Part shown: positions 28,789 through 51,492 of the stretch, one piece after another
Layout of the letters: every line of letters begins with the position of its first letter
How positions within the stretch are numbered: the stretch's first letter is position 1
Assembly: GCA_022711715.1 (NCBI GenBank)
Contig: JAKLEC010000001.1
Coordinates: 112,860-176,859 of the forward strand
Direction: 5' to 3'
Source: Acidobacteriota bacterium
GTDB lineage: Bacteria > Acidobacteriota > Aminicenantia > UBA2199
DNA: 64,000 nt
Position numbers and translations under genes: made by a program
The notes under the pieces: model-generated
Seen by the model: only the letters and a program-made list of their open reading frames with translations
What the model was told of the DNA's origin: nothing
The model's database searches: none

Positions 28789-28819
28789 AGTCCCGGCCGG
28801 CGGCAAAGACGGAAAACAA

Positions 28820-33862: not shown

Positions 33863-35204
<1,342 letters not shown>

Positions 35205-35208
<4 letters not shown>

Positions 35209-36160: not shown

Positions 36161-36190
36161 GATCCCATGCACTGTCCCGAGGAGAATCTG

Positions 36191-37093
36191 ATGCGCCATA
36201 AAATCACGATCGGCGTTTTGGCACTGCTTCTGGGCATCCTGACCGCTCCCGCCCGCCTTCATGCCTCGGCCCCGCGCAACATCATCGTCTACTTCGAGTT
36301 CCTCGACAACGCCAACGGCATCGAGGAGGCCGTCTCCTTCCTGTTCGGGCGCATGCTGCGGCCCGGCGACCAGCTGATCGTGCAGTCGCCGGCCAGGACC
36401 TACGGCTTCTCGCCGGCCAGCCTGGGACGCTCCAAGGCCGAGCTGGCCGTCTCCCTGCAGGGCCGGCTGCGCGGCGACATTTCCCGCTCGGGCCAGGGCT
36501 ATAAGCAGGTCCTCCTGGACCTGGACGCGGCGGCGCTGGAGATCGCCGAGCTCGCCTACCCGACCGGCGTGGTGGACGCCAACAAGGACCTGGGCGAGAT
36601 GTTCATCCTCTACCGCCAGGGCCTGGCCAACCTGCGGCAGCTGCGCCAGGTGAGCGCCGCCTCGCTGCGCCGGCTCAGCGGCGCCTTCCAGGGCCAAAAG
36701 GGTGAAAACCACGTCATCGTCCTCTTCGAGCGCGAGTTCCGCCCCATCCCGCGCCGCGAGGCGCTGAACGCGCTGGCCGACATGCCCGCCTTCGCCATGA
36801 AGGCCAACGAGATGTTCTCCGCGACCGAGCTTGACCCGCCCTTTGACGTGCCAGCGCTGGCCGCTTTCTTCCGCGGCGTGCCGCTGACCCTGCACTTCGT
36901 CTACGTCACCTCCAAGAACACGACGATCGCCGGCAACCGCTTTGAGAGTTCGGGCGACATCTACTCCGCCTTCAGCAAGCTCGCCGAAGCCACCGGCGGC
37001 GTATGCGCGGCGACGGCAGAACCAAGGGACGGGCTGAAAGCGGTATTGAAGGCCTGGCAGGGCTCAAAATTGAGCGGATCCAGGGAAGAATGA
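36191..37093 (+). CDS. Secreted alpha/beta protein, tandem paralog 1 (VWA-like fold suspected, no MIDAS)
   Basis: GAGGAG SD 5 nt before ATG 36191. Signal peptide. Shares PRNIIV(Y/F)FE, GDQLI.QSP, QKGENH.IVLFEREFRP.PRREALN, VPLTLHFVYVT and ATGGVC with the two downstream genes. Confidence 0.8.
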   Translation: MRHKITIGVLALLLGILTAPARLHASAPRNIIVYFEFLDNANGIEEAVSFLFGRMLRPGDQLIVQSPARTYGFSPASLGRSKAELAVSLQGRLRGDISRSGQGYKQVLLDLDAAALEIAELAYPTGVVDANKDLGEMFILYRQGLANLRQLRQVSAASLRRLSGAFQGQKGENHVIVLFEREFRPIPRREALNALADMPAFAMKANEMFSATELDPPFDVPALAAFFRGVPLTLHFVYVTSKNTTIAGNRFESSGDIYSAFSKLAEATGGVCAATAEPRDGLKAVLKAWQGSKLSGSREE

Positions 37094-37210
37094 GGGAAGA
37101 CAGAGGGAAAGGCAGAGGGAAAATAAAGTGAGAAAGAGGTTCTGAAAAGGCCTTTCCCACTCTCTCTTCCCTTTCTCCTCCCTCACTCTTCCCTCTGTCT
37201 TCCCTTGAGA
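37081..37210. repeat. GGGAAG-type hairpin element (compact form)
   Basis: Purine arm 37081-37137, loop ttctgaaaagg, pyrimidine arm 37150-37210. Contains the TGA stop of paralog 1 and the -35 box of paralog 2. Confidence 0.9.
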
Positions 37211-37233
37211 TTCTTAATTCCTGGGTGTAGGAT
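37205..37233 (+). promoter_or_regulatory. Sigma70-type promoter TTGAGA-17-TAGGAT for paralog 2
   Basis: Homologous to 36132-36160, with conserved GGTGTAG(A/G)ATGATCCCA. Confidence 0.5.
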
Positions 37234-37262
37234 GATCCCATAAACTTCCCTAGGAGGCCCTG

Positions 37263-38153
37263 ATGCCCCGAAAATCTCCCGCCTTCATTCTCACCCTCAT
37301 CCTGTTCCTGGCCGCCCTGGCCGCCCCGTGCCGCCTGGCGGCTGCCGGGCCGCGCAACATCATCGTCTTCTTCGAGCTCCGCGATGATGTCGCCGGCGTG
37401 GAGAGCGCCGTGGAGACGGTTTTCGACAAGATGCTCGCGCCCGGCGACCAGCTCATCATCCAGTCGCCGGTCCGCGTCTACGGGTTCTCGGCGCAGACCC
37501 TAGCCCGGCCCAAGGCCGAGCTGGTCGCGGCCATCAACGACAAGCTGCGCGCCGACATCACCCGGGCGGCGCAGACCTACAAGCAGGTGATCGGCGAGCT
37601 CGAGACGGCGGCCCGCAACATCGCCAGCCTCGCCTACCCCGACCTCGAGTCGAGCGGCGCCCTGCCCGAGGTCCGCGACATGGGCGAGCTGTTCAACTTC
37701 TACCGCCAGGGGCTGGCCAACCTGGCCGTCCTGCGCAAGGCCAACGACGCCTCCCTGCGCCAGCTGGCCGGCGCCTTCCGCGGCCAGAAGGGCGAAAACC
37801 ATATTATCGTCCTCTTCGAGCGCGAGTTCCGGCCGGTCCCCCGGCGCGAGGCCTTGAACGTGCTGGCCGACATGCCCAAGATCGCCTTCCAAGCCAACGA
37901 GCTGTTCACCATCGGCAACCTGAAGGAACCCTTCGACGCCGACGCCCTGGCCGGGTTCCTCAAGGGAGTGCCGCTGACGCTCCATTTCGTCTACGTCACC
38001 GGCAAGACCACGTCGGCAACCGGCAACCTGCTGGAGAACTCGGGCGACGTCTATTCGGCGTTCAGCGAGGCGGCCCAGGCCACCGGCGGCGTGTGCACGA
38101 CGACCGCCGAGCCCAGCGATGGGCTGAAAACGATTCTTAAATCCTGGAAATAG
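37263..38153 (+). CDS. Secreted alpha/beta protein, tandem paralog 2
   Basis: AGGAGG SD, signal peptide, colinear with paralogs 1 and 3. Confidence 0.85.
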   Translation: MPRKSPAFILTLILFLAALAAPCRLAAAGPRNIIVFFELRDDVAGVESAVETVFDKMLAPGDQLIIQSPVRVYGFSAQTLARPKAELVAAINDKLRADITRAAQTYKQVIGELETAARNIASLAYPDLESSGALPEVRDMGELFNFYRQGLANLAVLRKANDASLRQLAGAFRGQKGENHIIVLFEREFRPVPRREALNVLADMPKIAFQANELFTIGNLKEPFDADALAGFLKGVPLTLHFVYVTGKTTSATGNLLENSGDVYSAFSEAAQATGGVCTTTAEPSDGLKTILKSWK

Positions 38154-38160
38154 AAAAGGG

Positions 38161-38261
38161 CTATCGTAATTCGTAAGGCGTAATTCGTGATTCGTAGCGG
38201 CAAAAGGCCGATCCGTTGCGGTTCTTTTTCCGAATTCCGAATTACGAATCACGAGTGATCG
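38161..38261. repeat. CGTRATT-armed hairpin element, copy 3
   Basis: ctatCGTAATTCGTaaggCGTAATTCGTGATTCGtagcggcaaaaggccgatccgttgcggttctttttcCGAATTCCGAATTACGAATCACGagtgatcg. Confidence 0.9.
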
Positions 38262-38325
38262 TCCTCCCTGTATTTATATTTGACAAAGGAGTATCATTCC
38301 ATCGAGACAATCCACAGGAGATGCC

Positions 38326-39237
38326 ATGCGACGCAAAAAATCGATTTCCCTGCTGGCCCTGTTCCTGGCACTGGCCGCCCTGGCCGTTCCCGCCCCGCTG
38401 CAGGCCGCCGGGCCGCGCAACATCATCGTCTTCTTCGAGTTCCGCGAAGTCACCGGCGGCGTAGATGCCGCTTTGGAGACGGTCTTCAACCGCATGCTCG
38501 GCCCCAGCGACCAGCTGATCATCCAGTCGCCGGCGCGGCTCTACGGCTTCTCGCCGCAGACCCTGGCCCGGCCCAAGACGGAGCTGATCGCCATGATGCA
38601 CGAGAAGCTGCGCGGCGACATCTCCCAGGCGGCGCAGAACTACCAGCAGGTCACCAAGGACCTGGAGATCGCCGTGCGCAACCTGGAGGGTTTCGTGATG
38701 CCTTCGGGGGTCCCCGAAGCCGGCGGCATGGGCGGCGGCAGGGAAACCCGGGACCTCAGCGAGCTCTTCAACGGCTACCGCCAGGGGCTGGACAACCTGG
38801 CCGTCCTGCGCAAGGTCAACGAGGCCGCATTGCGCCAGCTGGCCGGCGCCTTCCGCGGCCAGAAGGGAGAGAACCACATTATCGTCCTGTTCGAGCGCGA
38901 ATTCCGGCCGGTGCCGCGGCGTGAGGCGCTGAACATCCTGGGCGACATGCCCAAGTTCGCCTTCCAGGCCAACGAGCTGTTCACCATCGGCAACCTGAAG
39001 GAACCCTTCGACGGCGCCGCCCTGGCCGAGTTTTTCAAGGAGGTGCCGCTGAAGTTGCATTTCGTCTACGTCACCGGCAAGACCACGTCGGCAACCGGCA
39101 ATCTGCTGGAGAACTCGGGCGACGTCTACTCGGCCTTCAGCAAGGCGGCCCGGGCCACCGGCGGCGTGTGTGAGACCACGGCCGAGCCGGCGGACGGCTT
39201 GAAGGCGGTCATGAAGGCCTGGAAGGACGAAAAATAG
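38326..39237 (+). CDS. Secreted alpha/beta protein, tandem paralog 3
   Basis: AGGAG SD, signal peptide, colinear with paralogs 1 and 2. Confidence 0.85.
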   Translation: MRRKKSISLLALFLALAALAVPAPLQAAGPRNIIVFFEFREVTGGVDAALETVFNRMLGPSDQLIIQSPARLYGFSPQTLARPKTELIAMMHEKLRGDISQAAQNYQQVTKDLEIAVRNLEGFVMPSGVPEAGGMGGGRETRDLSELFNGYRQGLDNLAVLRKVNEAALRQLAGAFRGQKGENHIIVLFEREFRPVPRREALNILGDMPKFAFQANELFTIGNLKEPFDGAALAEFFKEVPLKLHFVYVTGKTTSATGNLLENSGDVYSAFSKAARATGGVCETTAEPADGLKAVMKAWKDEK

Positions 39238-39246
39238 CGGCAGAAG

Positions 39247-39340
39247 CGATCGTAATTCGTTAGACGTAATTCGTAATTCGTAACCGCAACAGATCGATCC
39301 GTTGCAGTTCCTCTTCCGAATTACGAATCAGGAGTGATCG
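39247..39340. repeat. CGTRATT-armed hairpin element, copy 4
   Basis: Same architecture and orientation as 38161-38261. Core ccgcaacagatcgatccgttgcag. Confidence 0.9.
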
Positions 39341-39367
39341 TTCCCCCTGTAGTTCTTTTGGCAGGGG

Positions 39368-39471
39368 CTATCGCAATTCGTCAGGCGTAATTCATAATTC
39401 ATAGCCGCAAAAGACTGGTCTATTGCCGCTTTTCTTCCGAATTTCGAACCACGAATTACGAATTACGGATC
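39368..39471. repeat. CGTRATT-armed hairpin element, copy 5 (more diverged)
   Basis: ctatcgcaattcgtcaggcgtaattcataattcatagccgcaaaagactggtctattgccgcttttcttccgaatttcgaaccacgaattacgaattacggatc. Confidence 0.85.
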
Positions 39472-39515
39472 TCGGTTTTCATGAAACGGCCGTGTTTCGG
39501 CCGGCGTCTATAATA

Positions 39516-39524
39516 TGGTATAAT
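39516..39524 (+). promoter_or_regulatory. Extended -10 TGgTATAAT for the GWxTD operon
   Basis: Perfect extended -10 box 25 nt before ATG 39549. A second TATAAT lies at 39509-39514. Confidence 0.5.
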
Positions 39525-39548: not shown

Positions 39549-41642
39549 ATGCATTCTCCAGCAACCCGACCGATGTTCCACCGCTCCCGACGGCGGGCGG
39601 CCCTGCTGCTGGGTCTTTTCCTGCTCCTGGGCGGGGCTTCCCGCGGCGATGCGCCCAAGCGCCCGCCCCTGGCCGAGAAATACCGCCAATGGCTCGAGCT
39701 GGTCGAATACATCATCACCCCCGACGAGCGCCGCATCTTCATCGACCTGGACAACGACCGCGACCGCGAGGCCTTCATCAACATCTTCTGGAACCAGCGC
39801 GACCCCAGCCGCGGCACGCCGGCCAACGAGTTCAAGGACGAGCACGTCCGCCGCTTCGAGTACGTCAACCGCTACTTCGGCTTCTCCTCGCCGCTGCCCG
39901 GCTGGAAGACCGACCGCGGCCGCATCTACATCCTGCTGGGGCCGCCGGTCAGCCGCGACGAGGTCTTCAGCAGCTACCTCTACCCCATCGAGATCTGGGA
40001 TTACTACGGCGAGCCGGGCAAGGGCATGCCGACGATGTTCAACGTCGTGTTCTACCGCAAGGGCAACGCCGGTGACTTCAAGTTGTACATCCCGGCCGTC
40101 GACGGCCCGGACCAGCTGCTGATCACCGGGGTGGGCGAGTTCCGCTCCACCGACTACCAGGCCATCGTCAAGAAGCTCAACGAGATCAAGCCCGAGGTCG
40201 CCGACATCGCCCTGTCGCTGATCCCCGGCGAAAAGACCACCAACTTCTCGCCCTCCATGCGCGACCTGACGCTGATGGCCAAGATCAGCGACCTGCCCAA
40301 GCAGAACATCAACACCACCTACGCCAACCAGTTCCAGCGCTTCAAGGCCTATGTCAACGTCGAGAACTCGGCCGACTACCTGGGCAGCCGCCGCGAGGTG
40401 CTCCTGCTGCGCGATCCCGTGTCGCGGCTGACTTTCCTGCACTTCGCCATCTGGCCCGAGCGCATATCGGTCGATTTCTCGCCGGACACCAAGCAATACG
40501 CCTGCTCCTACAAGATGGCGGTGGACCTGCGCCGGGGCGAGGCGATCGTCTTCCAGCAGACCAAGACCCTGCCCTTCGCCTACGACCAGGCCGGCATGGA
40601 GAAGACGCTGGCCGACGGCTTGGTGCTGGCCGACATGATCCCGGTGATCGCCGGCGATTTCGAGCTGACCGTGCTGGTGCAGAACTCGGTCAACAACGAA
40701 TTCGCCACCTTCAGCGAGCGGGTGCGCGTGCCCGGCGATGGCCAGGCGGCGGTCTTCGGCCCGCTCGTCTCCTACCGCGTGCAGGCCGGCGCCCGCGCCG
40801 TCTTCTCCGCCTTCGCCACCCGCAACCTGCAGGCCAGCCCCGATCCCCAGCGCACCTTCGGCGAGAAGGAGCCGCTGCAGGCGCTGCTGGGCGCCGACTT
40901 CGGCGCCGCTCCCGGCGGCGCCCCGCCGGAAGTCGAGCTGACCAGCGTTCCGGCCGCCGGCGCCGCTCCCGTTTCCCGGCGGCTGCAGCCGCGTTCGAGC
41001 GGCGGCGACCGGGTGCAGACCTACCATGTCGAGCTGGGGGCGCTGCCCCCCGGCTACTACCGCCTGCGCGCCGTCCTGCGCGACGCCCGAGGCGGCGAGA
41101 TCGCCGGCGACGAGACGAACTTCACCGTCTCGCGGCTGCCGGCGGTGTCCCACCCGGCCGTGGCGGCGCCGAGCGTTCCCGCCGCCCGCGAGTACGCCTT
41201 CCGCGCCATGCTGGCCGCCCAGTACGAGGCCAGCGGCCGCCCCGACGACGCCGAGCGCGAGTACGACGAGGCGCTGCGCCAGGGCGGCGACAACCTGCCG
41301 CTGCGAGTCGCCTTCGCCCGCTTCCTGCTCGCCCAGGCCAAGCCCGAGCGGGCGCTGGAGGTGTCCGCCCCACTGCCGGAGCAGGGCGCGCATGCCTTCG
41401 ACCGCTTCGCCCTGCGCGGCAAGGCCCTGTACCGCCTCGGCCGCTGGCAGGAGGCCGTCGACGAGCTGCTGCGCGCCAACGCCCTCTACGACAGCGACAT
41501 CTCGGTGCTCAACGGCCTCGGCCTCTCGCTGCTGCGCCTGGGCAACCCCCAGGAAGCGCGCAAGGCGCTGGCGGCGTCGCTGAAGATCAAGGCGGAGCAG
41601 CCCGACATCGCCGCCGTGCTGCGGCAGACGGAGGCCCCATGA
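39549..41642 (+). CDS. GWxTD domain protein with C-terminal TPR region
   Basis: FINIFWNQRDP...PLPGWKTDRGRIYILLGPP matches the GWxTD family signature. TPR-like C-terminus. Start ATG 39549 follows a TGgTATAAT promoter. Confidence 0.85.
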   Translation: MHSPATRPMFHRSRRRAALLLGLFLLLGGASRGDAPKRPPLAEKYRQWLELVEYIITPDERRIFIDLDNDRDREAFINIFWNQRDPSRGTPANEFKDEHVRRFEYVNRYFGFSSPLPGWKTDRGRIYILLGPPVSRDEVFSSYLYPIEIWDYYGEPGKGMPTMFNVVFYRKGNAGDFKLYIPAVDGPDQLLITGVGEFRSTDYQAIVKKLNEIKPEVADIALSLIPGEKTTNFSPSMRDLTLMAKISDLPKQNINTTYANQFQRFKAYVNVENSADYLGSRREVLLLRDPVSRLTFLHFAIWPERISVDFSPDTKQYACSYKMAVDLRRGEAIVFQQTKTLPFAYDQAGMEKTLADGLVLADMIPVIAGDFELTVLVQNSVNNEFATFSERVRVPGDGQAAVFGPLVSYRVQAGARAVFSAFATRNLQASPDPQRTFGEKEPLQALLGADFGAAPGGAPPEVELTSVPAAGAAPVSRRLQPRSSGGDRVQTYHVELGALPPGYYRLRAVLRDARGGEIAGDETNFTVSRLPAVSHPAVAAPSVPAAREYAFRAMLAAQYEASGRPDDAEREYDEALRQGGDNLPLRVAFARFLLAQAKPERALEVSAPLPEQGAHAFDRFALRGKALYRLGRWQEAVDELLRANALYDSDISVLNGLGLSLLRLGNPQEARKALAASLKIKAEQPDIAAVLRQTEAP

Positions 41643-42577
41643 AACGACTGGCTCCCCTGGCCTGCGCCGCCCTACTCCTCGGCCTGGCGCTGCTGCGGCC
41701 CGTCGCCGCGGCGCCCAAGCTCGACGCCGACAGCGAGGAATTTTACCGCATGGCGCGCTATTTCATGACCCGCGACGAGGAGAAGCGCTTCCGCAACCTG
41801 GCCACCCCCGAACTGCGCCGGGAGTTCATCGACGCCTTCTGGGAGATCCGCGACCCCGATCCCCTCACGACGGAGAACGAGTTCCGCGACGAGTTGGAGG
41901 AGCGTTTCGAATTCGTCGGCCGCTACCTGCGCGAGGGCAACCGCCCGGGCTGGGACACGGCCCGGGGCATGATCTACCTGGTGCTGGGGCCGCCCGACAC
42001 CATGACCGCCGGCTCGACGCCCTACCCCAGCGCCTCCCCCTACAACCGCGACTCGGCGTCCGACACCACCTCCGGCGTCATTGTCTGGCCCTATCCCCTG
42101 CTCAGCGTCAACGTCGTCTTTGTCGACCGCCAGGGCTTCGGCATCTACGAGCTGGACATGCTTCGCACCTCGCCGCGGCTGCTGGCGCTGCTGAAGGCGG
42201 GCAAGACCCGCTTCATCCGCGACGGCGCCAAGTCCGCCGATGAGCCGTTCCTGCCGTTCAAGGCCGACGTCGACGCCGCCCGCGGCGTCGTGCGCGTCGT
42301 CCTCGCCGCCAGGGAGCTGCGCTACGAGATCGATCCCGACGGCTCCTATTACGCCCGCGTGCAGATGGCGGCCAACGTCTACCACAGCGACGGCCGCATC
42401 GTGAGCCGCAAGGAGGAGCAGCGGGTCGCGCTCGGCGTTCCGGGGCAGGAGAAGGAGAAGCTGGAGTTGGAGTGGGCGATCCCGCTGGCGCCGGGACGCA
42501 ACCAGGTCGACCTGCTGGTCTCGGACCAGGTCAGCGGCCGCTCGAACCGCCTGTTCCTGGCAGTGAAAAAAAAGTGA
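41639..42577 (+). CDS. GWxTD domain protein (GWDTA variant)
   Basis: FIDAFWEIRDPDP...RPGWDTARGMIYLVLGPPD. 4-nt overlap with the upstream gene. Confidence 0.85.
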   Translation: MKRLAPLACAALLLGLALLRPVAAAPKLDADSEEFYRMARYFMTRDEEKRFRNLATPELRREFIDAFWEIRDPDPLTTENEFRDELEERFEFVGRYLREGNRPGWDTARGMIYLVLGPPDTMTAGSTPYPSASPYNRDSASDTTSGVIVWPYPLLSVNVVFVDRQGFGIYELDMLRTSPRLLALLKAGKTRFIRDGAKSADEPFLPFKADVDAARGVVRVVLAARELRYEIDPDGSYYARVQMAANVYHSDGRIVSRKEEQRVALGVPGQEKEKLELEWAIPLAPGRNQVDLLVSDQVSGRSNRLFLAVKKK

Positions 42578-42611
42578 AGCGAACCGTCGAACCAAGATAA
42601 GGAGGATATGC

Positions 42612-43568
42612 ATGCGCAACACCATCCGTCACTTCCTGGCCGGCGCCCTGCTGCTGGCCGTCGCCGTCGCGCTCCCCGCCCAGGAGGGCCGCGGCAACGG
42701 CCGCCTCACCGGCACCGTGGTCGATGAGAACGGCGCCCCGCTGGAGAACGCGACCATCACCCTGAAGTACATGGAGTTCAACAATACCCGCGAGACGAGG
42801 TCCAACAACAAGGGACAGTGGGGCTTCCTCGGCCTGGGCAAGGGCACGGTGCAGGTCACCGGCGCCCTGGAGGGCTACGCCTCCACGACCACCCAGCAGC
42901 CGGTCAGCGGCGCCAAGCCCAATCCGGAGATCCACCTGGTGCTCAAGAAGGGCGGCACCGGCATCGCCGGCGACCCCAACCGCGACGCCATCCTGCGCGC
43001 CCACGACCTGTTCGACAAGCGCCAGTACGCCGAGGCGCTGGCCCTGTACCAGGAGTTCGCCCAGAAGAACCCGGCCAACTACCAGATCGGCGTCTACATC
43101 GGCAACTGCATGACCGAAATGGGCGACTACGAGGAGGCCCTGGCCGAATACCAGAAGGTGCTGGCCGAGGTCACCAAGGAGAACCCCGAGCTGAAGGGCA
43201 ATACCACCGCCTCGCTGGTCTTCGCCGGCATCGGCGACGTCTACCTGCGCCAGGAGAAGTGGAAGCCGGCGGTGGAGAACTTCCAGCGCTCGATCGACAT
43301 CCAGCCCAGCGACCCGGCCCTGCCCTTCAACGTGGCCGAGATCATGTTCGCCCGCAACAAGCCCGAGGAGGCCGAGAAATACTACCTGATGGCCGTCCAG
43401 ATCAAGCCCGAGTGGCCCAAACCCTACCTGAAGCTGGCCTACGTGGCCATGAACCGCGGCCAGATGGACAAGGCGGTCGAGCACCTGAAGAAGTACATCG
43501 AGATCGGCAAGGACGACCCCGGCTTCGCCGAGGGCCAGGCGCTGCTCGAGCTGCTGCAGAAGAAATAG
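42612..43568 (+). CDS. CarboxypepD_reg-like domain + TPR protein, secreted
   Basis: AAGGAGGA SD. Signal peptide. GRLTGTVVDENGAPLENATITL beta-sandwich motif followed by TPR repeats. Confidence 0.8.
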   Translation: MRNTIRHFLAGALLLAVAVALPAQEGRGNGRLTGTVVDENGAPLENATITLKYMEFNNTRETRSNNKGQWGFLGLGKGTVQVTGALEGYASTTTQQPVSGAKPNPEIHLVLKKGGTGIAGDPNRDAILRAHDLFDKRQYAEALALYQEFAQKNPANYQIGVYIGNCMTEMGDYEEALAEYQKVLAEVTKENPELKGNTTASLVFAGIGDVYLRQEKWKPAVENFQRSIDIQPSDPALPFNVAEIMFARNKPEEAEKYYLMAVQIKPEWPKPYLKLAYVAMNRGQMDKAVEHLKKYIEIGKDDPGFAEGQALLELLQKK

Positions 43569-43572
43569 CCCC

Positions 43573-46062
43573 GTGCCCACGTTCGCGAGGCGGTGGCGCG
43601 GCGCCGCCGCCGCGGCGCTGCTGCTGGCCCTGGCGTTCGCTGTCGGCGCCTGCCGCCGCCAGCAGCCGGGGCCGGGCGGCTCCGCCGGCGGCCGCTTCAA
43701 CCTGCTGCTCATCACTTTGGACACCACCCGGGCCGACCGCCTGGGCTGCTACGGCGACGCCCGCGCCGCGACGCCCGTGCTGGACCGCCTGGCCCGCGAG
43801 GGCGTGCGCTTCGAGCGCGCCTATACCACCGCGCCGCTCACCCTGCCGGCCCACGTCAGCCTGATGACCGGCCGCGGGCCCCAGGCCCACCAGGTGCGCA
43901 ACAACGGCACCTATGCGCTGCGCCCCGAGGAGGCCACCCTGGCCGAGGAGCTGAAGCGCGCCGGCTTTTCCACCGCGGCCATGATCGCCGCCTTCGTGCT
44001 GGAAGCCAAGTTCGGACTGGCCCAGGGGTTCGACCGCTACGACGACGCGCTGGACAAGCCGCAGGGCTACACCAACTTCCGCTCCGAGATCACCGCCGAC
44101 CGGGTGCACGACAAGTTCCGCCGCTGGCTGGACGGCGCCCCCGGGGCGCCCTTCTTCTGCTGGGTGCACCTCTACGATCCCCACGCCCCCTACGCGCCGC
44201 CCGCCCCCTACCGCGAGCGCTTCGCCGGCGACCCCTACCGCGGCGAGATCGCCTTCATGGACGAGACCATCGGCCGCATGCTGGCCGACCTGGAGGAGCG
44301 CGGCCTGCTGGAGAACACCCTGGTGGTGGCCGTGGGCGACCACGGCGAGGGCTTCGACGAGCACGGCGAGAGCGGGCACGGCGTCTTCTGCTACGAGGAG
44401 TCGCTGCGCGTGCCGCTCATCTTCCGCCTGCCGCGCCTTTTCGCCGGCGGCCGGGCGGTGAAGCGGCCGGTGGGACTGGTCGACGTGCTGCCCACCGTGC
44501 TCGATCTCTGCCGGCTGCCGCGCCCCGCCGGCATGCAGGGGCGCAGCCTGGGGACGCTGCTCCGCTCCGCCGGGGAGGACGGCGGCGAGGCCCCCCTCTA
44601 CTTCGAGAGCCTGTACGGCATGGAGGAGATGGGCTGGGCGCCCCTGTCGGGACTGCTGAGCGGCTCCTGGAAGTACATCTCCCTGCCCAAGCCGGAGCTG
44701 TACGACCTCGCCGCCGATCCGCTGGAAAAGAGCAACCTGTACCTGCAGAAAAACGCGCAGGCCAAGCGCCTGGCGCGCGAGCTGGACGACCTGCTGAGCC
44801 GCACGGTGCCCGCTGGCGCCTCGGCGCTGCGGCCGCAGCAGACGCGCGCCAACCAGGCGCGCCTGCGCGCCCTCGGCTACCTGGCCGCGGCCGGGAACCA
44901 GGCCTGGCAGGGCTCGGGCGACGACCCCAAGGACGGCATCGGGCCATTGAACTTACTGATGAAGGCCCGCGAGGAGGTACGCCAGGGGCGCCTCGACTCC
45001 GCCGCCCGACAGTTCGCCGCCCTGCGCGCCAGCGGCATCGACCGCACGCTCCCCCAGTTCTACGACATGTACTACGAGCTGGCGCTGGCGCGCAAGGACC
45101 CGGCCCGGGTACGTGCCGCCCTGCGCGAGGCCAGCGAGCGCTTTCCCAGCCTGACGCGCTTCGACATGGTGCTGGCGGGCTACCTGCGCGAGCGCGGCGA
45201 CAAGCACGGCGCCGAGGCGGCGGCGCTGCGCGCCCTGGCCAAGGACCCGAAGACCGTCGAAGCCCACCTGCTGCTGGGCGAGCTCTACCGCAACCAGAAG
45301 CAGCTGGAGAAGGCCATCACCCATTTTCGCCAGGCCTGGGACCTGGAGCCCGACGGCGCCAAGCTGGGCCTCGCCCTAGCCGACCTCAGCCTGGAGGCGG
45401 GGCGCGCGCCGGAGGCGCTGGAGGCGTTGCGCCGCCTCCTGCGCCAGGCCGGCGACCGTCCCGACGCGCTGGAAGCCGACGTCCGCGCCCAGGCGGCCAA
45501 GCTGCTGCTCAAGCTCGGGCAGCCGGAGCTCGCGGAAGGCCTGCTGCGCGGCCTGGTCGGCGAGCAGGCCGGCAACCCGGCGCACTGGACGCAGCTGGGC
45601 CTGGCCCAGCTCGACCGCGGCCAGGGGGACGAGGCGCTGGCCTCCTTCACCCGCGCCCTCGAGCTCGATCCCCGGCAGGCGCTGGCCCTGAGCGGCATGG
45701 GCACCCTGCACCTGACCCTGTTCCGCCAGCGCAAGGACCGGCCGAGCCTGCAGCGCGCCGAGGAGTACTTCTCGCGGGCGGTGGCCGTGGACGCCAAGCT
45801 GGTCACGGCGCTGAACGGCCTGGGCGTGACCTATCTCTACCTCGGGGACGCGGCACAGGCCATCGAGCGGCTGCGCACCGCCGTCGCCGCCGACCCGGGC
45901 TTCGTCAACGCCTATTTCAACCTGGCCATCGCCCAGCTCAGCGCCGGCCGCAAGGGCGCGGCGAAGAACACGCTGGGCATGCTGCGCCAGCGCCACGGCG
46001 GGCGCCTCAGCGCCGGGGAGCGATCGCAGTACGAGGCGCTCTGGCGCGAAGCCACGTCCTAG
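43573..46062 (+). CDS. Sulfatase-like (alkaline phosphatase superfamily, Thr-type) hydrolase fused to TPR domain
   Basis: LLITLDTTRAD...APLTLPAHVSLMTG...VGDHGEGF, followed by about 350 aa of TPR. GTG start with a possible lipobox (AVGAC). Confidence 0.85.
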   Translation: MPTFARRWRGAAAAALLLALAFAVGACRRQQPGPGGSAGGRFNLLLITLDTTRADRLGCYGDARAATPVLDRLAREGVRFERAYTTAPLTLPAHVSLMTGRGPQAHQVRNNGTYALRPEEATLAEELKRAGFSTAAMIAAFVLEAKFGLAQGFDRYDDALDKPQGYTNFRSEITADRVHDKFRRWLDGAPGAPFFCWVHLYDPHAPYAPPAPYRERFAGDPYRGEIAFMDETIGRMLADLEERGLLENTLVVAVGDHGEGFDEHGESGHGVFCYEESLRVPLIFRLPRLFAGGRAVKRPVGLVDVLPTVLDLCRLPRPAGMQGRSLGTLLRSAGEDGGEAPLYFESLYGMEEMGWAPLSGLLSGSWKYISLPKPELYDLAADPLEKSNLYLQKNAQAKRLARELDDLLSRTVPAGASALRPQQTRANQARLRALGYLAAAGNQAWQGSGDDPKDGIGPLNLLMKAREEVRQGRLDSAARQFAALRASGIDRTLPQFYDMYYELALARKDPARVRAALREASERFPSLTRFDMVLAGYLRERGDKHGAEAAALRALAKDPKTVEAHLLLGELYRNQKQLEKAITHFRQAWDLEPDGAKLGLALADLSLEAGRAPEALEALRRLLRQAGDRPDALEADVRAQAAKLLLKLGQPELAEGLLRGLVGEQAGNPAHWTQLGLAQLDRGQGDEALASFTRALELDPRQALALSGMGTLHLTLFRQRKDRPSLQRAEEYFSRAVAVDAKLVTALNGLGVTYLYLGDAAQAIERLRTAVAADPGFVNAYFNLAIAQLSAGRKGAAKNTLGMLRQRHGGRLSAGERSQYEALWREATS

Positions 46063-46066
46063 CAAA

Positions 46067-46294
46067 GATATCGTGACGCGTAACGCGTGACAAGTAACCG
46101 CGTCAGGACGAGCGCTCGTGATTCGTCATTCGTAATTCGTGATTCGCAACAGCAATGGAACGGTTCATGCTATTCGAACACTCTCTCGTCATTGATTCGC
46201 TTCAGGGCTTTCCTAACACGAACACAAACACGAACACATAGTTAGATCGTTCGTTCTTTTTGGCTTTCCTACCACTATCACTACCACTACCACT
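46067..46294. repeat. Composite mosaic: GCGTRAC array - linker - CGTRATT array - CAACAGCAATGG core - CACGAA/CACAAA array - TAYCAC array
   Basis: Colinear with 3016-3153. The final taccac array continues into the conserved 3' flank of the sulfatase-like gene. Confidence 0.85.
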
Positions 46295-46310: not shown

Positions 46311-48632
46311 CTACTTCTTCTCGAGCTCGGCAATGAGCCTTTCCCCCTCGCGCGTGTAGAAGTCCCGGCGCTCGGGGTTGCCCAGCGCGTTGAACAAATT
46401 GGTCAGCACGAAATAGCCGAACAGCGTGTCGCGGTCCCGCGGCGGCACGGCGATCCCCTTTAGGCAGAGGTCGACGGCTTCGTTGAGGTCGCCTCCCCGG
46501 CGCAGCAGGATCTCGGCCAGGTGGAAGCGCGGCAGCTTCAGCCCGGGGTTGGCGGCGATGGCCTGGCGGTAATAGCCCTCGGCCTCGCCGGCCCGTCCGG
46601 CCTGCTTGAGCAGGTTGCCCAGGTTGGCTGCCGCCTGGAAGTTCTGGCCGTTGACTTCCAGCTCGCCGCGATAGAACTCGATGGCCGCCTCAGGCTTCTG
46701 CAGCGCCTCCTGCACCTGCGCCAGCAGGAAGCGGGTGTTGCGCGCCCGCGGGTTCTCCCTGAGGCCGCGGCGCAGCAGCTCCTCGGCGGCGGCGTAGTCC
46801 CCCTTCAGGATCAGCGCCTCGCCGGCCTGGTTGTAGGCCTGGGGAGCGGCCGGGTCGATGGCGATCGCCCGCCGCAGCAGCGGCAGGGCCTCGTCGGGAC
46901 GGCGCTGCAGCATGCGGATGTGGCCCAGCTCCTCCAGCAGCGCCGGGTCGTCGGGGAAGACCTTCAGGAAAGCCAGGTTCTCCTCGGCGGCGGCGTCGAG
47001 CTCGCCCGACGTGGCCAGGGTCTTGACGACGTTGATCATCAGGAAATTGTTGTCGGGCTTGAGGGCCAGGGCGCGGCGGAAGGCCTCGAGCGCCTCCTGG
47101 CGCCGCTTGCGCTTCAGGTTGACGTTGCCCAGCAGGCTCCAGGCGTCGGCCAGCTCGGGCTCCTCGCGCGCCAGCTTCTCCAGCAGGACGGCGGCGTCCT
47201 CGAAGCGCTTCTGCTCCATCAGCGCGGATGCCCGCGAGATGGAGTTGCCGACGCCGATCTTGTCCTTGGGATCGGCCAGCGGCCTGGACTCGTCGACGCG
47301 CACCTCGCCCGACAGGTAGCCCAGGGCGGCCAGCCGCCGCTGGTCCTCGGGGCTCAGGCGGCTGCCGGCGGCGCTGCGCAGCGCGTTGCGCGAGCGGCGG
47401 CTGACGAAGTCCAGCAGGCGGCCGCGCAGCTCGCGGCGGCGCGGATCGCCAACCAGGTCGCGGCTCTCGCCGGGATCGCGCCCCAGGTCGTACAGCTCGT
47501 CGCGCGGCGCCAGGATGTACTTGAGCGCGCCGCGGTGGAAGGACTGCAGGGGCGACCAGCCGAAGTGGAAGCGGGGGTAGAAGGTCTCGCTGTAGGCCTC
47601 GCCCTCTCCGCCGGCATCGCGCCCGTCCAGCTGGGGCCAGAGCGACCGGCCCTGCCACTCCCGGGGCGCGGGAACGGCCAGCATCTCGAGGATGGTCGGT
47701 GCCACGTCGACCAGCTCCACGGTCCTGGGCACCGTGCGGGCGGCGAACGGCCGCGGGGCGCGGACGATCAGCGGCACGCGGACCGTCGTCTCGTACAGGA
47801 ACATGCCGTGGCCGTCCTCGCCGTGGTCGCCGAGCCCCTCGCCGTGGTCGGCGGCCACCACGATGAGCGTGCGCTCATACAGCCCCTTCTCCTTGAGAAA
47901 GGCGATGAACTTGCCCAGCTCGGCGTCGGTGTACTCCACTTCTCCGCGGTAGGCGGCGCGCGGTGTGCCGCGCGGGTAGGGCGGCGGCGGGTCGTAGGGT
48001 GAGTGCGGGTCGTACAGGTGGATCCAGGCGAAGAAGCGGCGGCCGCCGATCCTCTCCAGCCACTGGCGGGCCTCGCCCAGCACCTCGTCGGCGCGCTTCT
48101 CGTTCTCCAGCAGGATGCGGCCGTAGCGCGCCGGGTCGAAGCGGTCGGAGTAGAGGTCCCAGCCCTGGGCCAGTCCCCACTTGTTGTGCAGCACGAACGC
48201 GCCGATGAAGGCGGCGGTGGCCATCCCGCGCCCCTGCAGCACCTCGCTGAGCAGGGTCAGCGCGGCCGGCGCCTGGAAGCCGCCGTTGTCGCGGACCTGG
48301 TTGAAGGGCGGGTAGGTGCTGGAGAGGAGCGAGGTGTGCGAGGGCAGGGTGAGCGGCACCTGGGCGACGCAGCGGTCGAAGCGCGCCCCTTCCCCGGCCA
48401 GGGCGTCCAGCGCCGGCGTGCGCGCCAGCCCGGCGCCGTAAGCACCGACATGGTCGGCGCGCAGGGTGTCGATGGTGACCAGGATGACGCTGAGGTCGCC
48501 TGAGGGGAGCTGGCGGCCGGGAGCGGACAGGAAGCGGAAGGCCAGCCAGGCGGCCGCTGCCAGCAGCGCCACGGCCCCGGCAACGGCCCACCAGCGCGGA
48601 CGGAAAGGACGAGCGGCGGCGGGGACGGTCAT
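46311..48632 (-). CDS. Sulfatase-like (Thr-type) hydrolase fused to TPR domain, paralog
   Basis: VTIDTLRADH...VPLTLPSHTSLLS...AADHGEGLGDHGE plus TPR. 773 aa, colinear with 48892-51213. Confidence 0.88.
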   Translation of the reverse strand: MTVPAAARPFRPRWWAVAGAVALLAAAAWLAFRFLSAPGRQLPSGDLSVILVTIDTLRADHVGAYGAGLARTPALDALAGEGARFDRCVAQVPLTLPSHTSLLSSTYPPFNQVRDNGGFQAPAALTLLSEVLQGRGMATAAFIGAFVLHNKWGLAQGWDLYSDRFDPARYGRILLENEKRADEVLGEARQWLERIGGRRFFAWIHLYDPHSPYDPPPPYPRGTPRAAYRGEVEYTDAELGKFIAFLKEKGLYERTLIVVAADHGEGLGDHGEDGHGMFLYETTVRVPLIVRAPRPFAARTVPRTVELVDVAPTILEMLAVPAPREWQGRSLWPQLDGRDAGGEGEAYSETFYPRFHFGWSPLQSFHRGALKYILAPRDELYDLGRDPGESRDLVGDPRRRELRGRLLDFVSRRSRNALRSAAGSRLSPEDQRRLAALGYLSGEVRVDESRPLADPKDKIGVGNSISRASALMEQKRFEDAAVLLEKLAREEPELADAWSLLGNVNLKRKRRQEALEAFRRALALKPDNNFLMINVVKTLATSGELDAAAEENLAFLKVFPDDPALLEELGHIRMLQRRPDEALPLLRRAIAIDPAAPQAYNQAGEALILKGDYAAAEELLRRGLRENPRARNTRFLLAQVQEALQKPEAAIEFYRGELEVNGQNFQAAANLGNLLKQAGRAGEAEGYYRQAIAANPGLKLPRFHLAEILLRRGGDLNEAVDLCLKGIAVPPRDRDTLFGYFVLTNLFNALGNPERRDFYTREGERLIAELEKK

Positions 48633-48891: not shown

Positions 48892-51213
48892 CTACTTTTT
48901 CTCGAGCTCGGCAATGAGCTTCTCCCCCTCGCGGGTATAGAAGTCGCGGCGCTCGTTGTCGCCCAGGGCGTTGTAGAGGTTGGTCAGCACGAAGTAGCCG
49001 AACAGCGTCTCGCGGTCCCGGGGCGGCAGCGCGATCCCCTCCAGGCAGAGGCCGACGGCGCGCTCCAGGCCGCGGCCCTGGCGCAGCAGGATCTCCGCCA
49101 GGTGGAAGCGTGCCATCTTCAGCCTGACGTCGGCGGCGACGGCCGCCTCGTAGTACCGGGCCGCTTCGTCGAGCCGGTCCTGCTGCTTCAGCAGGTTGGC
49201 CAGGCTGACCGCCGCCTCGTGGCGCCGGGGATCGGTCTCCAGCTCGCGGCGGTAATGCCCGGCCGCCTCCTCTTTCCGCCCCTCGCCCTCGGCGGCCAGC
49301 CCCAGCAGGTAGTGGCTTCCCGCGGCATTGGGCACGACGGCCAGCACCCCGTCCAGCAGCTCCCGGGCGGCGGCGAAATCGCCGGCGGCGACGCGCTTGG
49401 CGGCCGCCTCGTTGAGCCGGGGGTAGATCCCGGGATCGGCGGCGAAGGCCCGGCGCAGCGCCTGCAGCCCGTCCGCGCCGGCGCCCTGCGCCAAACGGAT
49501 GCGCCCCAACACGGCCAGGAGCTCCGGGTCGTTGGGGGCGTCGCGCAGGAAGCGTTCGGCCTCGGCGGCCGCCTCAGCGAGGCGGTTCAGCTTCTCCAGC
49601 GTCTTCAGCAAGTCGAGGCGGTTGTTGGCGTCCTCGGGCTTGAGGGCCAGGGCGCGGCGGAACGCGGCCAGCGCCTCTTCGAAGCGGCCGCCGGCGAACA
49701 GGGCGTTGCCCTCCAGGTTCACGGCGTCGGCGAAGCCGGGGTTGCGCCCGACGATGCCGCGGGCCGTTTCCAGCGCCTCCTGCCAGCGCCCCGAGCCGAG
49801 AACGGCCACCGCCTTGCCGAAGGCCACATAGTCGCCCAGCCTGTCCTTGGGATCGGGCAGCGTTTCATCGTCGCCGGCGGCGGCGACGGAGCCGCCCAGG
49901 TAGCCGAGAGCGGCCAGGCGGCGGCGGTCCTCGGCGCTCATGGCCTGGATGGCGGAAGGCGCCAAAGCCCCGCGGCCGGCCTTCTGCATGAACGCCAGTC
50001 CGCGCCCGCGCAGGTCGTCGCGGCGGCGCGGCCGCTCGCCGGCGAGGTTGCGCCGCTCGCCCGGGTCGGCGGCGAGGTCGTAGAGCTCGTCGCGCGGCGC
50101 GAAGATGTATTTCTCGCCGTTGCGGTAGAAGGCCTTGAGCGGCGACCAGCCGTAGTGCAGCCGCGGGTACCAGGTCTCGCTGTAGGCGTCGCCGAAGCGG
50201 GAGTCGCTTTCGCCGGCCAGCAGCCGCGTCAGCGGCTTCCCCTGCCAGCCGGGGGGGGCGGGAATGCCCAGCAGCTCCAGGATGGTCGGCGCCACGTCGA
50301 CCAGCTGCACCGTCGTGGCCACCGTGCGGGCGGCGAACGGCCGCGGGCCGCGGACGATCAGCGGCACGTGCAGCGTCGTCTCGTACAGGAAATAGCCGTG
50401 CTTCTGCTCGCCGTGGTCGTCGAGCCCCTCGCCGTGGTCGGCGGTCGCCACCACCAGGGTCCGCTCCCAGAGCCCCCTCTCCTTCAGGAAGGCGAAGAAA
50501 CGGCCCAGCTCGGCGTCGGTGTACTCCACCTCGCCGCGGTAGGGGTCGTTGCCGCGGTCGAAGGGCGGCGGCGGGACGTAGGGGAAATGGGGGTCGTAGA
50601 GGTGGATCCAGGCGAAGAAGCGCCGGTTGCTGATGGCGGCGAGCCAGCCGCGGGCTTCGGCCAGCACTTCGCCGGCCGGCTTCTTGGCCAGCAGATCCAG
50701 GCTGCCGCCGGCTCCGGGATCGAAGCGGTCGGCGTACAGGTCGAACCCCTGGTTGAGCCCCCACTTGCCGTGCAGGACGTAGCCGCCGATGAAGGCGGCG
50801 GTGGCGAAACCGCGCCCGCGCAGCACCTCGCTGACCAGCTCCAGCTGCGGCGGCGCCTGGAAGGCGCCGTTGTCGCGCAGGCGGTGGAACAGCGGCTGCG
50901 TGGCCGACAGCAGCGAGGCGTGCGATGGCAGGGTGAGCGGCGCCTGGGCGACGCAGTGCGCGAAACGCGTCCCCTCGCCGGCCAGGGCGTCGAGCGCCGG
51001 CGTCGCGGCCCGCCCCTGGCCGTAGGCGCCCACGTGGTCGGCGCGCAGGGTGTCGATGGTGACCAGCACCACGTTCCAGGAGGCGGGGTCGGCAAGGCCG
51101 GCCCGCGGGCGCAGCAGCCAGACGCCCAGGGCCAGCAGCGCGGCCAGGGCCATGACGGCCGGCCACAGGAGCCGACGGCGGCGGCCGGAGGGGGAAGCGG
51201 ATGGCGTTCTCAC
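48892..51213 (-). CDS. Sulfatase-like (Thr-type) hydrolase fused to TPR domain, paralog
   Basis: VTIDTLRADH...APLTLPSHASLLS...TADHGEGLDDHGE plus TPR. GTG start. Same C-terminal ...REGE(R/K)LIAELEKK as its neighbour. Confidence 0.88.
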   Translation of the reverse strand: MRTPSASPSGRRRRLLWPAVMALAALLALGVWLLRPRAGLADPASWNVVLVTIDTLRADHVGAYGQGRAATPALDALAGEGTRFAHCVAQAPLTLPSHASLLSATQPLFHRLRDNGAFQAPPQLELVSEVLRGRGFATAAFIGGYVLHGKWGLNQGFDLYADRFDPGAGGSLDLLAKKPAGEVLAEARGWLAAISNRRFFAWIHLYDPHFPYVPPPPFDRGNDPYRGEVEYTDAELGRFFAFLKERGLWERTLVVATADHGEGLDDHGEQKHGYFLYETTLHVPLIVRGPRPFAARTVATTVQLVDVAPTILELLGIPAPPGWQGKPLTRLLAGESDSRFGDAYSETWYPRLHYGWSPLKAFYRNGEKYIFAPRDELYDLAADPGERRNLAGERPRRRDDLRGRGLAFMQKAGRGALAPSAIQAMSAEDRRRLAALGYLGGSVAAAGDDETLPDPKDRLGDYVAFGKAVAVLGSGRWQEALETARGIVGRNPGFADAVNLEGNALFAGGRFEEALAAFRRALALKPEDANNRLDLLKTLEKLNRLAEAAAEAERFLRDAPNDPELLAVLGRIRLAQGAGADGLQALRRAFAADPGIYPRLNEAAAKRVAAGDFAAARELLDGVLAVVPNAAGSHYLLGLAAEGEGRKEEAAGHYRRELETDPRRHEAAVSLANLLKQQDRLDEAARYYEAAVAADVRLKMARFHLAEILLRQGRGLERAVGLCLEGIALPPRDRETLFGYFVLTNLYNALGDNERRDFYTREGEKLIAELEKK

Positions 51214-51462: not shown

Positions 51463-51492
51463 AAAAAAAGGGGGGCACTTTCGTGCCCCCCC
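51463..51492 (-). terminator. Intrinsic terminator after TonB-dependent receptor 1
   Basis: Minus strand reads GGGGGGCAC-GAAA-GTGCCCCCC followed by U7. Confidence 0.9.

Follow-up and report, generated by a model that had tools for sequence, protein, structure and literature searches.

Genes of the locus

The stretch of DNA considered here comprises 64,000 nucleotides of contig JAKLEC010000001.1 from an Acidobacteriota bacterium, and is referred to at its full length as the window. Its subject is a run of four genes, G1 to G4, which encode exported proteins with GWxTD, CarboxypepD_reg, tetratricopeptide repeat (TPR) and sulfatase-fold domains, and which share a locus with genes for two TonB-dependent receptors (TBDRs). 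Translation of the open reading frames (ORFs) confirmed all four genes on the + strand, and the genes of the locus are listed below.

39549-41642, + strand: G1, 697 amino acids; signal peptide, GWxTD domain, two Ig-like domains, TPR
41639-42577, + strand: G2, 312 amino acids; signal peptide, GWxTD domain (GWDTA variant), one Ig-like domain
42612-43568, + strand: G3, 318 amino acids; signal peptide, CarboxypepD_reg domain, about five TPRs
43573-46062, + strand: G4, 829 amino acids; lipoprotein, sulfatase-fold domain, C-terminal TPR
46311-48632, - strand: S2, G4 paralog (35% identity); N-terminal hydrophobic anchor, T-L-P-S-H, TPR
48892-51213, - strand: S3, G4 paralog (39% identity); N-terminal hydrophobic anchor, T-L-P-S-H, TPR
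51521-54358, - strand: TBDR1; signal peptide, CarboxypepD_reg extension, TonB-box-like EAIVVTG, divergent plug, beta-barrel
54966-57845, - strand: TBDR2, TBDR1 paralog of the same architecture
36167-39237, + strand: ParA, ParB and ParC, three tandem secreted paralogs of about 300 amino acids each
31058-35208, + strand: histidine kinase (GAF, HisKA and HATPase domains) and NtrC-type sigma54 activator, a bacterial enhancer-binding protein (bEBP) whose gene lies at 33859-35208

The G1 and G2 genes overlap by 4 nt (a distance of -4 nt), while 34 nt separate G2 from G3 and 4 nt separate G3 from G4, and because of this tight spacing we take G1-G4 to be a single operon. The coding pattern in the four frames matches that of the genome, which has 65% G+C and whose true genes show a G+C content above 0.9 at third codon positions (GC3) and a higher content at first than at second positions; GC3 in G1-G4 is 0.91-0.95. 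Signal sequences, basic and then hydrophobic, were read from the translations at the N-termini of all four proteins. A first-pass annotation of this DNA had described four consecutive, overlapping or tightly spaced genes for exported proteins, with GWxTD signatures in the first two (GWDTA in the second), TPRs in three of the four, a Thr-type sulfatase-like protein as the last, and flanks consisting of three upstream paralogs, two sulfatase-TPR genes, two sigma54-preceded TBDR genes and a kinase/bEBP pair, and all of this was borne out, the TPRs being those matched by Pfam in G1, G3 and G4. Past TBDR2 lie an oligopeptidase B-like gene and then rpoC, and the end of the locus is therefore placed near position 57870.

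The GWxTD domain and its occurrence in other proteins

The GWxTD model TIGR04514 scored 101.7 bits with G1 and 80.8 bits with G2 (cut-off 28), and PF20094 scored 42.5 and 34.6 bits, respectively (cut-off 26.9). The motif region is PGWKTDRGRIYILLGPP in G1 (GWKTD) and PGWDTARGMIYLVLGPP in G2, where Ala replaces the Asp (GWDTA). In G1 the GWxTD domain occupies residues ~40-276 and is followed by two Ig-like beta-sandwiches (280-400 and 401-545) and the TPR region (549-695), and the Ig-like beta-sandwich of G2 spans residues 207-311. AlphaFold2 models of the two proteins, with a mean predicted local distance difference test score of 88.2 for G1 and 83.6 for G2, show the GWxTD domain as an alpha+beta fold of ~150-230 residues, followed by the Ig-like sandwiches and, in G1, by a TPR solenoid.

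The GWxTD family is large, with at least 11,375 clusters at 50% identity (E <=1e-3). More than 110 full-length orthologs of G1, carrying both GWxTD and TPR in ~700 amino acids, were found at identities down to 27%, and G2 orthologs adjoin G1 orthologs in many loci. Proteins labeled Candidatus Aminicenantes bacterium at NCBI are 100% identical to G1 and G2, which assigns the window to this group. When 341 instances of the domain were compared, a polar core emerged that consists of E, R, FW, RDP, T, NE, E, R and GW-T-RG, plus LGPP and W-Y; its residues other than the motif Asp are kept in at least 80% of the instances, and none of the conserved core positions is Cys or His. To judge from these residues, a polar and aromatic core that lacks Cys and His is more in keeping with a binding site than with a hydrolase. 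A transglutaminase- or papain-like core was considered as a candidate for the domain and was rejected because no Cys or His is conserved.

Sequence searches of the PDB with G1, G2 and a G2-family profile returned TPR matches only and no GWxTD relative, and Foldseek searches with both AlphaFold2 models yielded no significant structural neighbor for the GWxTD domain itself. For the G1 model, TPR proteins dominated the matches, and transglutaminases and bacterial alpha-2-macroglobulin were matched weakly over several domains (TM ~0.12, root-mean-square deviation >20 Å); for the G2 model, only FnIII, RbmA and factor XIII barrel domains were matched, with E-values of 2e-4 or worse. The first-pass annotation had called the function of GWxTD proteins undescribed, and we likewise found nothing relevant in the literature under GWxTD, PF20094 or TIGR04514, while the literature on Aminicenantes, TonB and sulfatases, and on Acidobacteria, sigma54 and TBDRs, was uninformative.

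A different setting for the domain came from the long members of the family. Nine of ten long GWxTD proteins (P0285, P0317, P0326, P0348, P0356, P0358, P0373, P0415 and P0417; loci L168 and L169) are fusions to a Peptidase_M56 (BlaR1-type) membrane protease, and carry one or two C-terminal GWxTD domains in place of the extracytoplasmic sensor of BlaR1. One of them, P0317, ends in a TonB_C domain, and at locus L169 a gene for a Penicillinase_R (BlaI-type) repressor lies directly upstream of the M56-GWxTD gene and overlaps its start. According to published surveys, the C-terminal domains often seen in M56 proteins include TonB_C, Plug and CarbopepD_reg_2 (PMC13492132). CarboxypepD_reg-like domains are reported from both TonB-dependent transporters (TBDTs) and TonB homologs, with a suggested part in the formation of the TBDT-TonB complex (PMC10350073). 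The M56 and TonB_C fusions, taken with these published module sets, therefore place GWxTD among the periplasmic modules associated with TBDTs and TonB. No M56 domain was detected in G1 or G2 by Pfam, and no Penicillinase_R gene is present among the annotated genes of the window.

The CarboxypepD_reg-TPR protein and the TonB-dependent receptors

G3 matched CarboxypepD_reg at 47 bits (cut-off 32.3), with a beta-sandwich at residues 32-101, and Pfam also matched TPR; in the family alignment its signal peptide has no lipobox. Both receptors carry a CarboxypepD_reg extension at the N-terminus (residues 28-109 in TBDR1 and 38-119 in TBDR2), the TonB-box-like EAIVVTG, read from the translations, comes directly after it, and the barrel follows. 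TBDR1 scored 140.7 bits with OMP_b-brl_4, 51.2 bits with CarboxypepD_reg and 36.5 bits with TonB_dep_Rec_b-barrel. BLASTP detected no direct similarity between the N-terminal domain of G3 and the N-terminal extension of TBDR1, which have only the Pfam family in common.

The sulfatase-fold enzymes

PF00884 (Sulfatase) matched G4, S2 and S3 with scores of 158.6, 135.2 and 139.4 bits. In G4, which has the lipobox AVGAC and a TPR domain of 350 residues, SGSH_C also scored above its cut-off, and PF01663 (Phosphodiest) reached 60.8 bits over residues 44-258 (cut-off 23). The closest solved relatives of G4 are S1 sulfatases, such as those acting on mucin, choline and carrageenan sulfates (E 1e-25 to 1e-33, ~30% identity), and in alignments with 7P24, 7OZ8 and 5G2V the residues T90-L-P-A-H94 of G4 coincide with the S-x-P-x-R motif, so that T90 stands at the formylglycine position. 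The C/S-x-P-x-R motif is absent from G4, S2 and S3, all three of which have Thr for Cys/Ser and His for Arg and keep T-L-P-[SA]-H. This motif is present in 39 of 40 aligned (non-gap) family sequences, the remaining one having Ser for Thr. Twelve residues of G4 (D50, T90, L91, P92, H94, N111, H199, D202, H204, D256, H257 and H269) are conserved in 39-41 of the 41 family members from clusters.

A Thr nucleophile in T-x-P-x-H, an Asn ~21 residues further on, DHG and additional Asp/His ligands are hallmarks of two-metal phosphodiesterases of the NPP type and not of sulfatases. The sulfatase equivalog models of NCBIfam scored far below cut-off for G4 (arylsulfatase 169.2 vs 481, choline-sulfatase 140 vs 433), as did the models for LapC/YejM (30.4 vs 825) and LtaS (26.7 vs 970). 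None of the three enzymes has a polytopic membrane domain, G4 having a lipobox only and S2 and S3 a single hydrophobic anchor, and the annotated genes of the window include no formylglycine-generating enzyme, anaerobic sulfatase-maturating enzyme (anSME) or glycoside hydrolase. Because of the Thr motif, the Asp/His/Asn set, the PF01663 score and the sub-cut-off sulfatase models, G4, S2 and S3 are predicted to be phosphate (di)esterases, and the chemistry that their sequences suggest is most likely hydrolysis of phosphate (di)esters rather than of sulfate esters.

Another enzyme of the alkaline phosphatase superfamily is encoded ~10 kb upstream of the locus, where a gene for a 724-amino-acid protein with a type I phosphodiesterase/NPP domain (26689-28863, - strand; PF01663, 105 bits) adjoins an acetate kinase gene (29079-30284).

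Conservation of the gene neighborhood

A scan with the G1 alignment, using one genome per species, gave 80 loci, mostly from Aminicenantes, and 160 related loci were examined in all. ORFs at these loci were classified with phmmer against the non-TPR parts of the window proteins, which avoids cross-matches between TPRs. Throughout the related loci, genes resembling G1, G2, G3 and G4 cluster with TBDRs of the CarboxypepD_reg type. The first-pass annotation had expected the neighborhood to be conserved, and the gene set does recur in many genomes: at least one partner family lies within 8 kb in 30 of the 41 G1 loci with at least 6 kb of flank on both sides (TBDR in 25, G3-like in 18, sulfatase-TPR in 15 and short GWxTD in 12), and in the reciprocal scan from G3 in metagenome contigs, which counted loci flanked on either side by 3.5 kb or more, a GWxTD or TBDR gene lies within 8 kb in 25/25 loci and is directly adjacent in 22 of them. 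When all loci were pooled, 73 of 92 TBDR genes were found less than 500 bp from a partner, which was G3 in 35 cases, GWxTD in 23 and sulfatase-TPR in 15, making G3 the cluster gene most tightly linked to the receptors.

The order seen in the window, G1-G2-G3-SULF-(SULF)-TBDR (SULF, sulfatase-TPR), is also found in L088, L089, L091, L098, L022 and L050, and other orders, such as TBDR-G3-SULF-G2-G1 or SULF-G3-TBDR-G1, are found in L005, L009, L002, L023 and L058, so that the linkage persists where the genes have been rearranged. At least nine metagenome-assembled genomes (MAGs) supply two or three separate G1 loci each among the 80, and the cassette is thus multi-copy, as polysaccharide utilization loci (PULs) are.

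Core and exchangeable genes

The recurring core of these loci is a TBDR together with GWxTD and G3 genes, and the sulfatase-TPR genes are one of several exchangeable hydrolase sets. To cover more distant GWxTD proteins, which have no TPR, their contigs were annotated with Pfam. At L084 and L085 the order TBDR, GWxTD, CarboxypepD_reg/TPR is followed by several genes of the beta-lactamase family and by genes for an S15/S9 peptidase, MR_MLE epimerases and an amidohydrolase; on the contig of P0117 the order is GWxTD, GH127, CarboxypepD_reg/TPR, TBDR and two M24 peptidases; and on that of P0110 a GWxTD-TPR gene adjoins a TBDR gene and MacB-type permeases. Genes for M1, M14 and M24 peptidases are interleaved in other clusters, and many clusters contain GWxTD, G3 and TBDR genes only, with no enzyme. 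The first-pass idea of a conserved ensemble accordingly holds for GWxTD and G3 and fails for the sulfatase-like enzyme, which is exchanged or missing elsewhere. Because peptidases of families M1, M14, M24, S9, S15 and M20 recur in related GWxTD/TBDR clusters, peptides may be a common substrate class for such loci.

The three secreted paralogs upstream of G1 are 59-60% identical to one another by alignment. They had no Pfam or NCBIfam match even at E = 10 and no PDB match, and hhalign found no relation to GWxTD. Their homologs, all annotated as hypothetical, were found only in Aminicenantes/Acidobacteriota, always in tandem with two or three per contig, and are often close to the GWxTD cluster: in L088, L089, L090 and L164 they are upstream of G1, and in L098 and L007 they are within the cluster itself. 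Near each Par gene of the window is a match to a sigma70-like promoter or an element resembling repetitive extragenic palindromes (REP-like). The family is probably a lineage-specific accessory of the locus.

Promoters and candidate regulators

The following candidate regulatory elements were located at the locus.

39509-39524, + strand: putative sigma70-type promoter region of G1-G4; two overlapping TATAAT-like -10 elements, read from the sequence
51469-51492, - strand: terminator-like hairpin directly after TBDR1; 10 pairs, 8 of them G-C, then TTTTTTT
54395-54410, - strand: putative sigma54-type -24/-12 element TGGCATGAAAATTGCA, ~40 nt upstream of the TBDR1 start; 10/11 consensus positions
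57855-57870, - strand: putative sigma54-type -24/-12 element TGGCATCATTATTGCT, ~12 nt upstream of the annotated TBDR2 start; 9/11 consensus positions

The 310-nt spacer upstream of G1 contains two REP-like hairpin elements, the two TATAAT hexamers and a good ribosome-binding site, AAGGAAAAAGAGGA, and we infer a sigma70-type promoter for G1-G4 from these features. Ahead of TBDR1 and TBDR2 stand putative promoters of another kind, with the pattern TGGCAT-N5-TTGC, in which the -24 GG and -12 GC are spaced by 10 nt, and a bEBP gene is nearby; no sigma54 element was seen upstream of G1, the Par genes, S2 or S3. A loose sigma54 pattern matched 4 times across the window, against 4.9 matches expected, which is not above chance, and the matches are meaningful only because of their position and their conservation upstream of TBDR genes. 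The strict pattern TGGCAY-N5-TTGCW occurs in related loci upstream of 26/62 TBDR genes, 2/108 G1 genes and 0/38 sulfatase-TPR genes, which makes the predicted sigma54 control of the receptors a conserved trait. A hairpin follows each TBDR gene, and the one after TBDR1 resembles a strong terminator. The operon named in the first-pass annotation fits G1-G4, with their close spacing and sigma70-like -10 elements. The wider locus comprises several units, each TBDR gene having its own putative sigma54 promoter and terminator.

The histidine kinase and the sigma54 activator are candidate regulators of both TBDR genes. A kinase-bEBP pair lies near the cluster in the close relatives L088 and L090, and directly upstream of the G1 orthologs in L070 and L072, which represent two distant lineages. 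The homologous kinase and activator occupy 5602-12088 in L070 and 5599-12082 in L072, the sources of which are Marinacidobacterales and another acidobacterial MAG, and other cluster genes are not nearby.

Other features of the window

The REP-like intergenic element consists of tandem CGTAATT heptamers and an inverted copy, arranged in hairpin units of ~97 nt. The pattern CGTAATTCGTRA, with at most one mismatch, has 27 matches in the window where 0.15 are expected, every one of them between genes. Sites of the element are as follows.

38158-38254, 39244-39340 and 39365-39461: REP-like elements
1344-1425, 2026-2058, 3068-3093, 26224-26249, 46124-46142 and 54716-54727: further REP-like sites

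Located directly 3' of several genes, these elements could act as terminators or mRNA stabilizers. No Rfam match was obtained within 30000-58500.

The oligopeptidase B-like gene directly beside TBDR2 encodes an S9 peptidase (58427-60619, - strand). A Bat-like (Bacteroides aerotolerance) gene set occupies 19729-23894 and includes genes for a VWA protein (19729-20793), BatD (21304-23136) and a BatE-like protein with TPR and SH3 domains (23085-23894), and the - strand carries two genes for GT4 glycosyltransferases at 15948-18156. Genes for a 656-amino-acid TPR protein (3334-5304) and a DUF4388 protein (5225-6280) are upstream of the trigger factor gene (7139-8572), and the Rho gene is at 13310-14584; this region is apparently unrelated to the GWxTD locus.

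Discussion

The reading that we favor, to which we assign a probability of about 0.55, is that G1-G4 constitute the periplasmic arm of a TonB-dependent nutrient-utilization locus, which would follow the logic of a PUL with different accessory proteins. According to this proposal, the histidine kinase and sigma54 activator would switch on both TBDR genes through the sigma54 promoters, and the receptors, by means of their extension, TonB box and barrel, would import a polymer fragment or an organic ester. On the side of the receptor that faces the periplasm, G3 would serve as scaffold and binding module together with the two GWxTD proteins, G1 and G2, and TPR-tagged hydrolases held there, G4 as a lipoprotein and S2 and S3 anchored in the membrane, would process the cargo. 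Given a sulfatase fold with a Thr nucleophile and NPP-like Asp, His and Asn residues, cleavage of a phosphate (di)ester would be the most likely reaction. The first-pass annotation had suggested a multi-component extracytoplasmic machine for substrate capture or processing, or for envelope or matrix assembly. A conserved exported system is indeed present, but it is not self-contained, being the apparent periplasmic arm of a TBDR locus that extends to at least 57870, and of the two functions proposed, the evidence favors substrate capture or processing, while envelope or matrix assembly gained no support.

This reading builds on the domains, the gene spacing, the co-localization with varying enzymes, the conservation of active-site residues, the sigma54 motifs and the M56/TonB_C fusions, all of which are observed. 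From them we infer contacts between the proteins, their periplasmic location, a binding or sensing role for GWxTD, phosphoesterase chemistry and the identity of the substrate. The case for the proposal is thus indirect, and several results weigh against it. The Plug domain of the receptors scored below threshold (13-18.3 bits vs 23.9, TBDR1 being at 13), while the barrel families scored above their cut-offs, and the types of promoter differ between G1-G4 (sigma70-like) and the TBDR genes (sigma54), so that their co-expression would be an assumption. The linkage, though strong, is not universal: of the 41 G1 loci with full flanks, 11 have no partner family within 8 kb, and TBDR genes are missing from the vicinity of some distant GWxTD genes. 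The case for enrichment is drawn from adjacency, not from a background density of TBDR genes in the genomes. As far as the models indicate, the GWxTD domain itself offers no functional analogy, since the Foldseek matches come from the TPR and Ig-like domains. Finally, the conserved residues of G4 that would form the two metal sites of NPP (among them D50, D202, H204, D256, H257 and H269), with N111 as the phosphoryl-binding Asn, were assigned indirectly, by comparison with motifs known from that family.

The system most like the proposed one is the SusC/SusD PUL. In both, the transporter has a CarboxypepD_reg-like N-terminal extension, accessory genes adjoin the transporter gene, hydrolase genes are co-localized and exchangeable, and several loci occur per genome, with a dedicated regulator each. 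In contrast to the SusC/SusD system, no protein of the locus has a SusD-family Pfam match; the accessories are GWxTD and CarboxypepD_reg-TPR proteins, which have plain signal peptides and are probably periplasmic rather than surface lipoproteins; regulation involves sigma54 and a kinase/bEBP pair instead of a hybrid two-component system or an extracytoplasmic function (ECF) sigma factor with its anti-sigma factor; and the associated enzymes are largely peptidases or phosphoesterase-like proteins, not glycoside hydrolases. G3 has a parallel in TonB7, TonB11 and the BT1763 extension of B. thetaiotaomicron, in that a CarboxypepD_reg-type Ig-like domain is found in a periplasmic protein genetically tied to TBDTs, but G3 has no TonB_C domain or membrane anchor, and its partner domain is TPR. 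Similarly, the GWxTD domain takes the extracytoplasmic sensor position in many M56 proteases of the BlaR1/MecR1 kind, which include the M56-TonB_C proteins of Bacteroidota, whereas G1 and G2 are free soluble proteins with Ig-like domains (and TPR in G1) and have no M56 domain or membrane segments. With regard to the enzymes, G4 shares with the NPP/alkaline phosphatase superfamily the Thr in T-x-P-x-H, the Asn ~21 residues downstream, DHG, the further Asp/His residues and a PF01663 score above cut-off, but its scaffold and C-terminal subdomain (SGSH_C) are those of S1 sulfatases and it is fused to the TPR domain. To the S1 sulfatases it is closest in sequence, with the same fold and the DHG and PH-x-P motifs kept; unlike them, it has Thr for Cys/Ser, His for the motif Arg and for the sulfate-binding Lys after DHG, and a degenerate GK-x-H.

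The same elements allow other readings. A role in trans-envelope signaling, in which the GWxTD proteins and perhaps G3 would sense or regulate the state of the TBDR, like FecR for FecA or like a BlaR1-type sensor domain, and would handle no substrate, seems unlikely to us. It can draw on the GWxTD domains of M56 BlaR1-type proteases paired with BlaI-type repressors, on the fusion that also carries TonB_C, on the many enzyme-free clusters and on the tight sigma54 control of the TBDR genes. However, neither G1 nor G2 contains a protease domain or spans the membrane, the operon encodes no DNA-binding partner, and the regulators nearby are a classical kinase/bEBP pair and not BlaI or an ECF sigma factor. 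The proteins are soluble, and each cluster has two to four of them as paralogs in tandem, which is more in line with binding proteins than with a single sensor. Quite unlikely, in our estimation, is remodeling or assembly of the envelope. In such a machine, lipid A, periplasmic glucans or an exopolymer would gain or lose phospho-substituents through the Thr-type enzymes, the TPR proteins would be scaffolds, and the barrel would be a pore for export or assembly. EptA, LtaS, OpgB, BcsG and YejM are enzymes that handle such substituents, the Thr-nucleophile members of PF00884 are established to include phosphoethanolamine and phosphoglycerol transferases, and the G4 pattern DHGE-x3-(D/G)E-x-G-x3-HG appears to resemble the EptA/MCR-1 motif. 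S2 and S3 seem to be membrane-anchored and G4 is a lipoprotein, there are weak NCBIfam matches to LapC/YejM and LtaS, and TPRs in combination with a barrel recall PgaA, BcsC and AlgK/AlgE. Yet the enzymes have no polytopic membrane domain of the kind found in lipid-directed transferases, those NCBIfam scores are far below cut-off (e.g., 30 vs 825), a tblastn search of plasmids gave sulfatase-type relatives only and no mcr/ept genes, and no synthase or glycosyltransferase was found in the cluster. Moreover, what varies between loci is the enzyme, which is swapped for peptidases, GH127 or beta-lactamase-family hydrolases or is missing altogether, and the barrel proteins have a TonB box and barrels of TBDR families.

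That this is an ordinary sulfatase locus, in which G4, S2 and S3 would be true sulfatases acting on sulfated glycans or choline-O-sulfate and feeding the TBDR, is very improbable, even though the best sequence matches are S1 sulfatases (E 1e-25 to 1e-33) and PF00884 and SGSH_C score above cut-off. The replacement of C/S-x-P-x-R by T-L-P-[SA]-H in 39/40 aligned family sequences, equivalog models far below cut-off (arylsulfatase 169 vs 481) and the lack of a formylglycine-generating enzyme, anSME or glycoside hydrolase among the annotated window genes all argue against it. A chance juxtaposition of unrelated secreted proteins that form no functional unit, for which the several promoters of different types and the commonness of TPR domains might be cited, is scarcely credible, and is contradicted by the neighborhood analysis, in which the same families occur together in many species and several orders, down to 27-35% identity.

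Beyond this locus, a broader form of the favored reading can be put forward tentatively, at well under even odds: GWxTD and CarboxypepD_reg-TPR proteins may be an unrecognized class of periplasmic TBDT partners in Acidobacteriota, including Aminicenantes, and neighboring phyla. They would build a TPR-held 'periplasmic utilisome' that docks on the N-terminal extension of the receptor, takes over the imported substrate and recruits exchangeable hydrolases. In BlaR1-type and TonB_C proteins, this GWxTD module would have been adopted as the sensor, and transport would thereby be coupled to gene regulation.

TonB-dependent utilization loci are a known kind of system, but an accessory set of GWxTD and CarboxypepD_reg-TPR proteins with no SusD was not found described in the literature that we searched, and the link of GWxTD to TBDRs and M56 sensors appears to be new. 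It gives the large GWxTD family a concrete genomic context, that of TonB-dependent receptors. Acidobacteriota and Aminicenantes, which encode many TBDRs of the CarboxypepD_reg type and, to our knowledge, no SusD, are abundant in soil, sediment and subsurface habitats. Should the missing accessories be the GWxTD and CarboxypepD_reg-TPR proteins, this would explain how these phyla organize high-affinity uptake of polymers, would provide a marker for predicting utilization loci outside Bacteroidota, and would suggest a binding partner for the N-terminal extension of TBDTs, which is a question in the SusC field as well. Furthermore, Thr-type enzymes with a sulfatase fold are routinely annotated as sulfatases, and if they are phosphoesterases, many inferences about the sulfur cycle drawn from metagenomes would be corrected.

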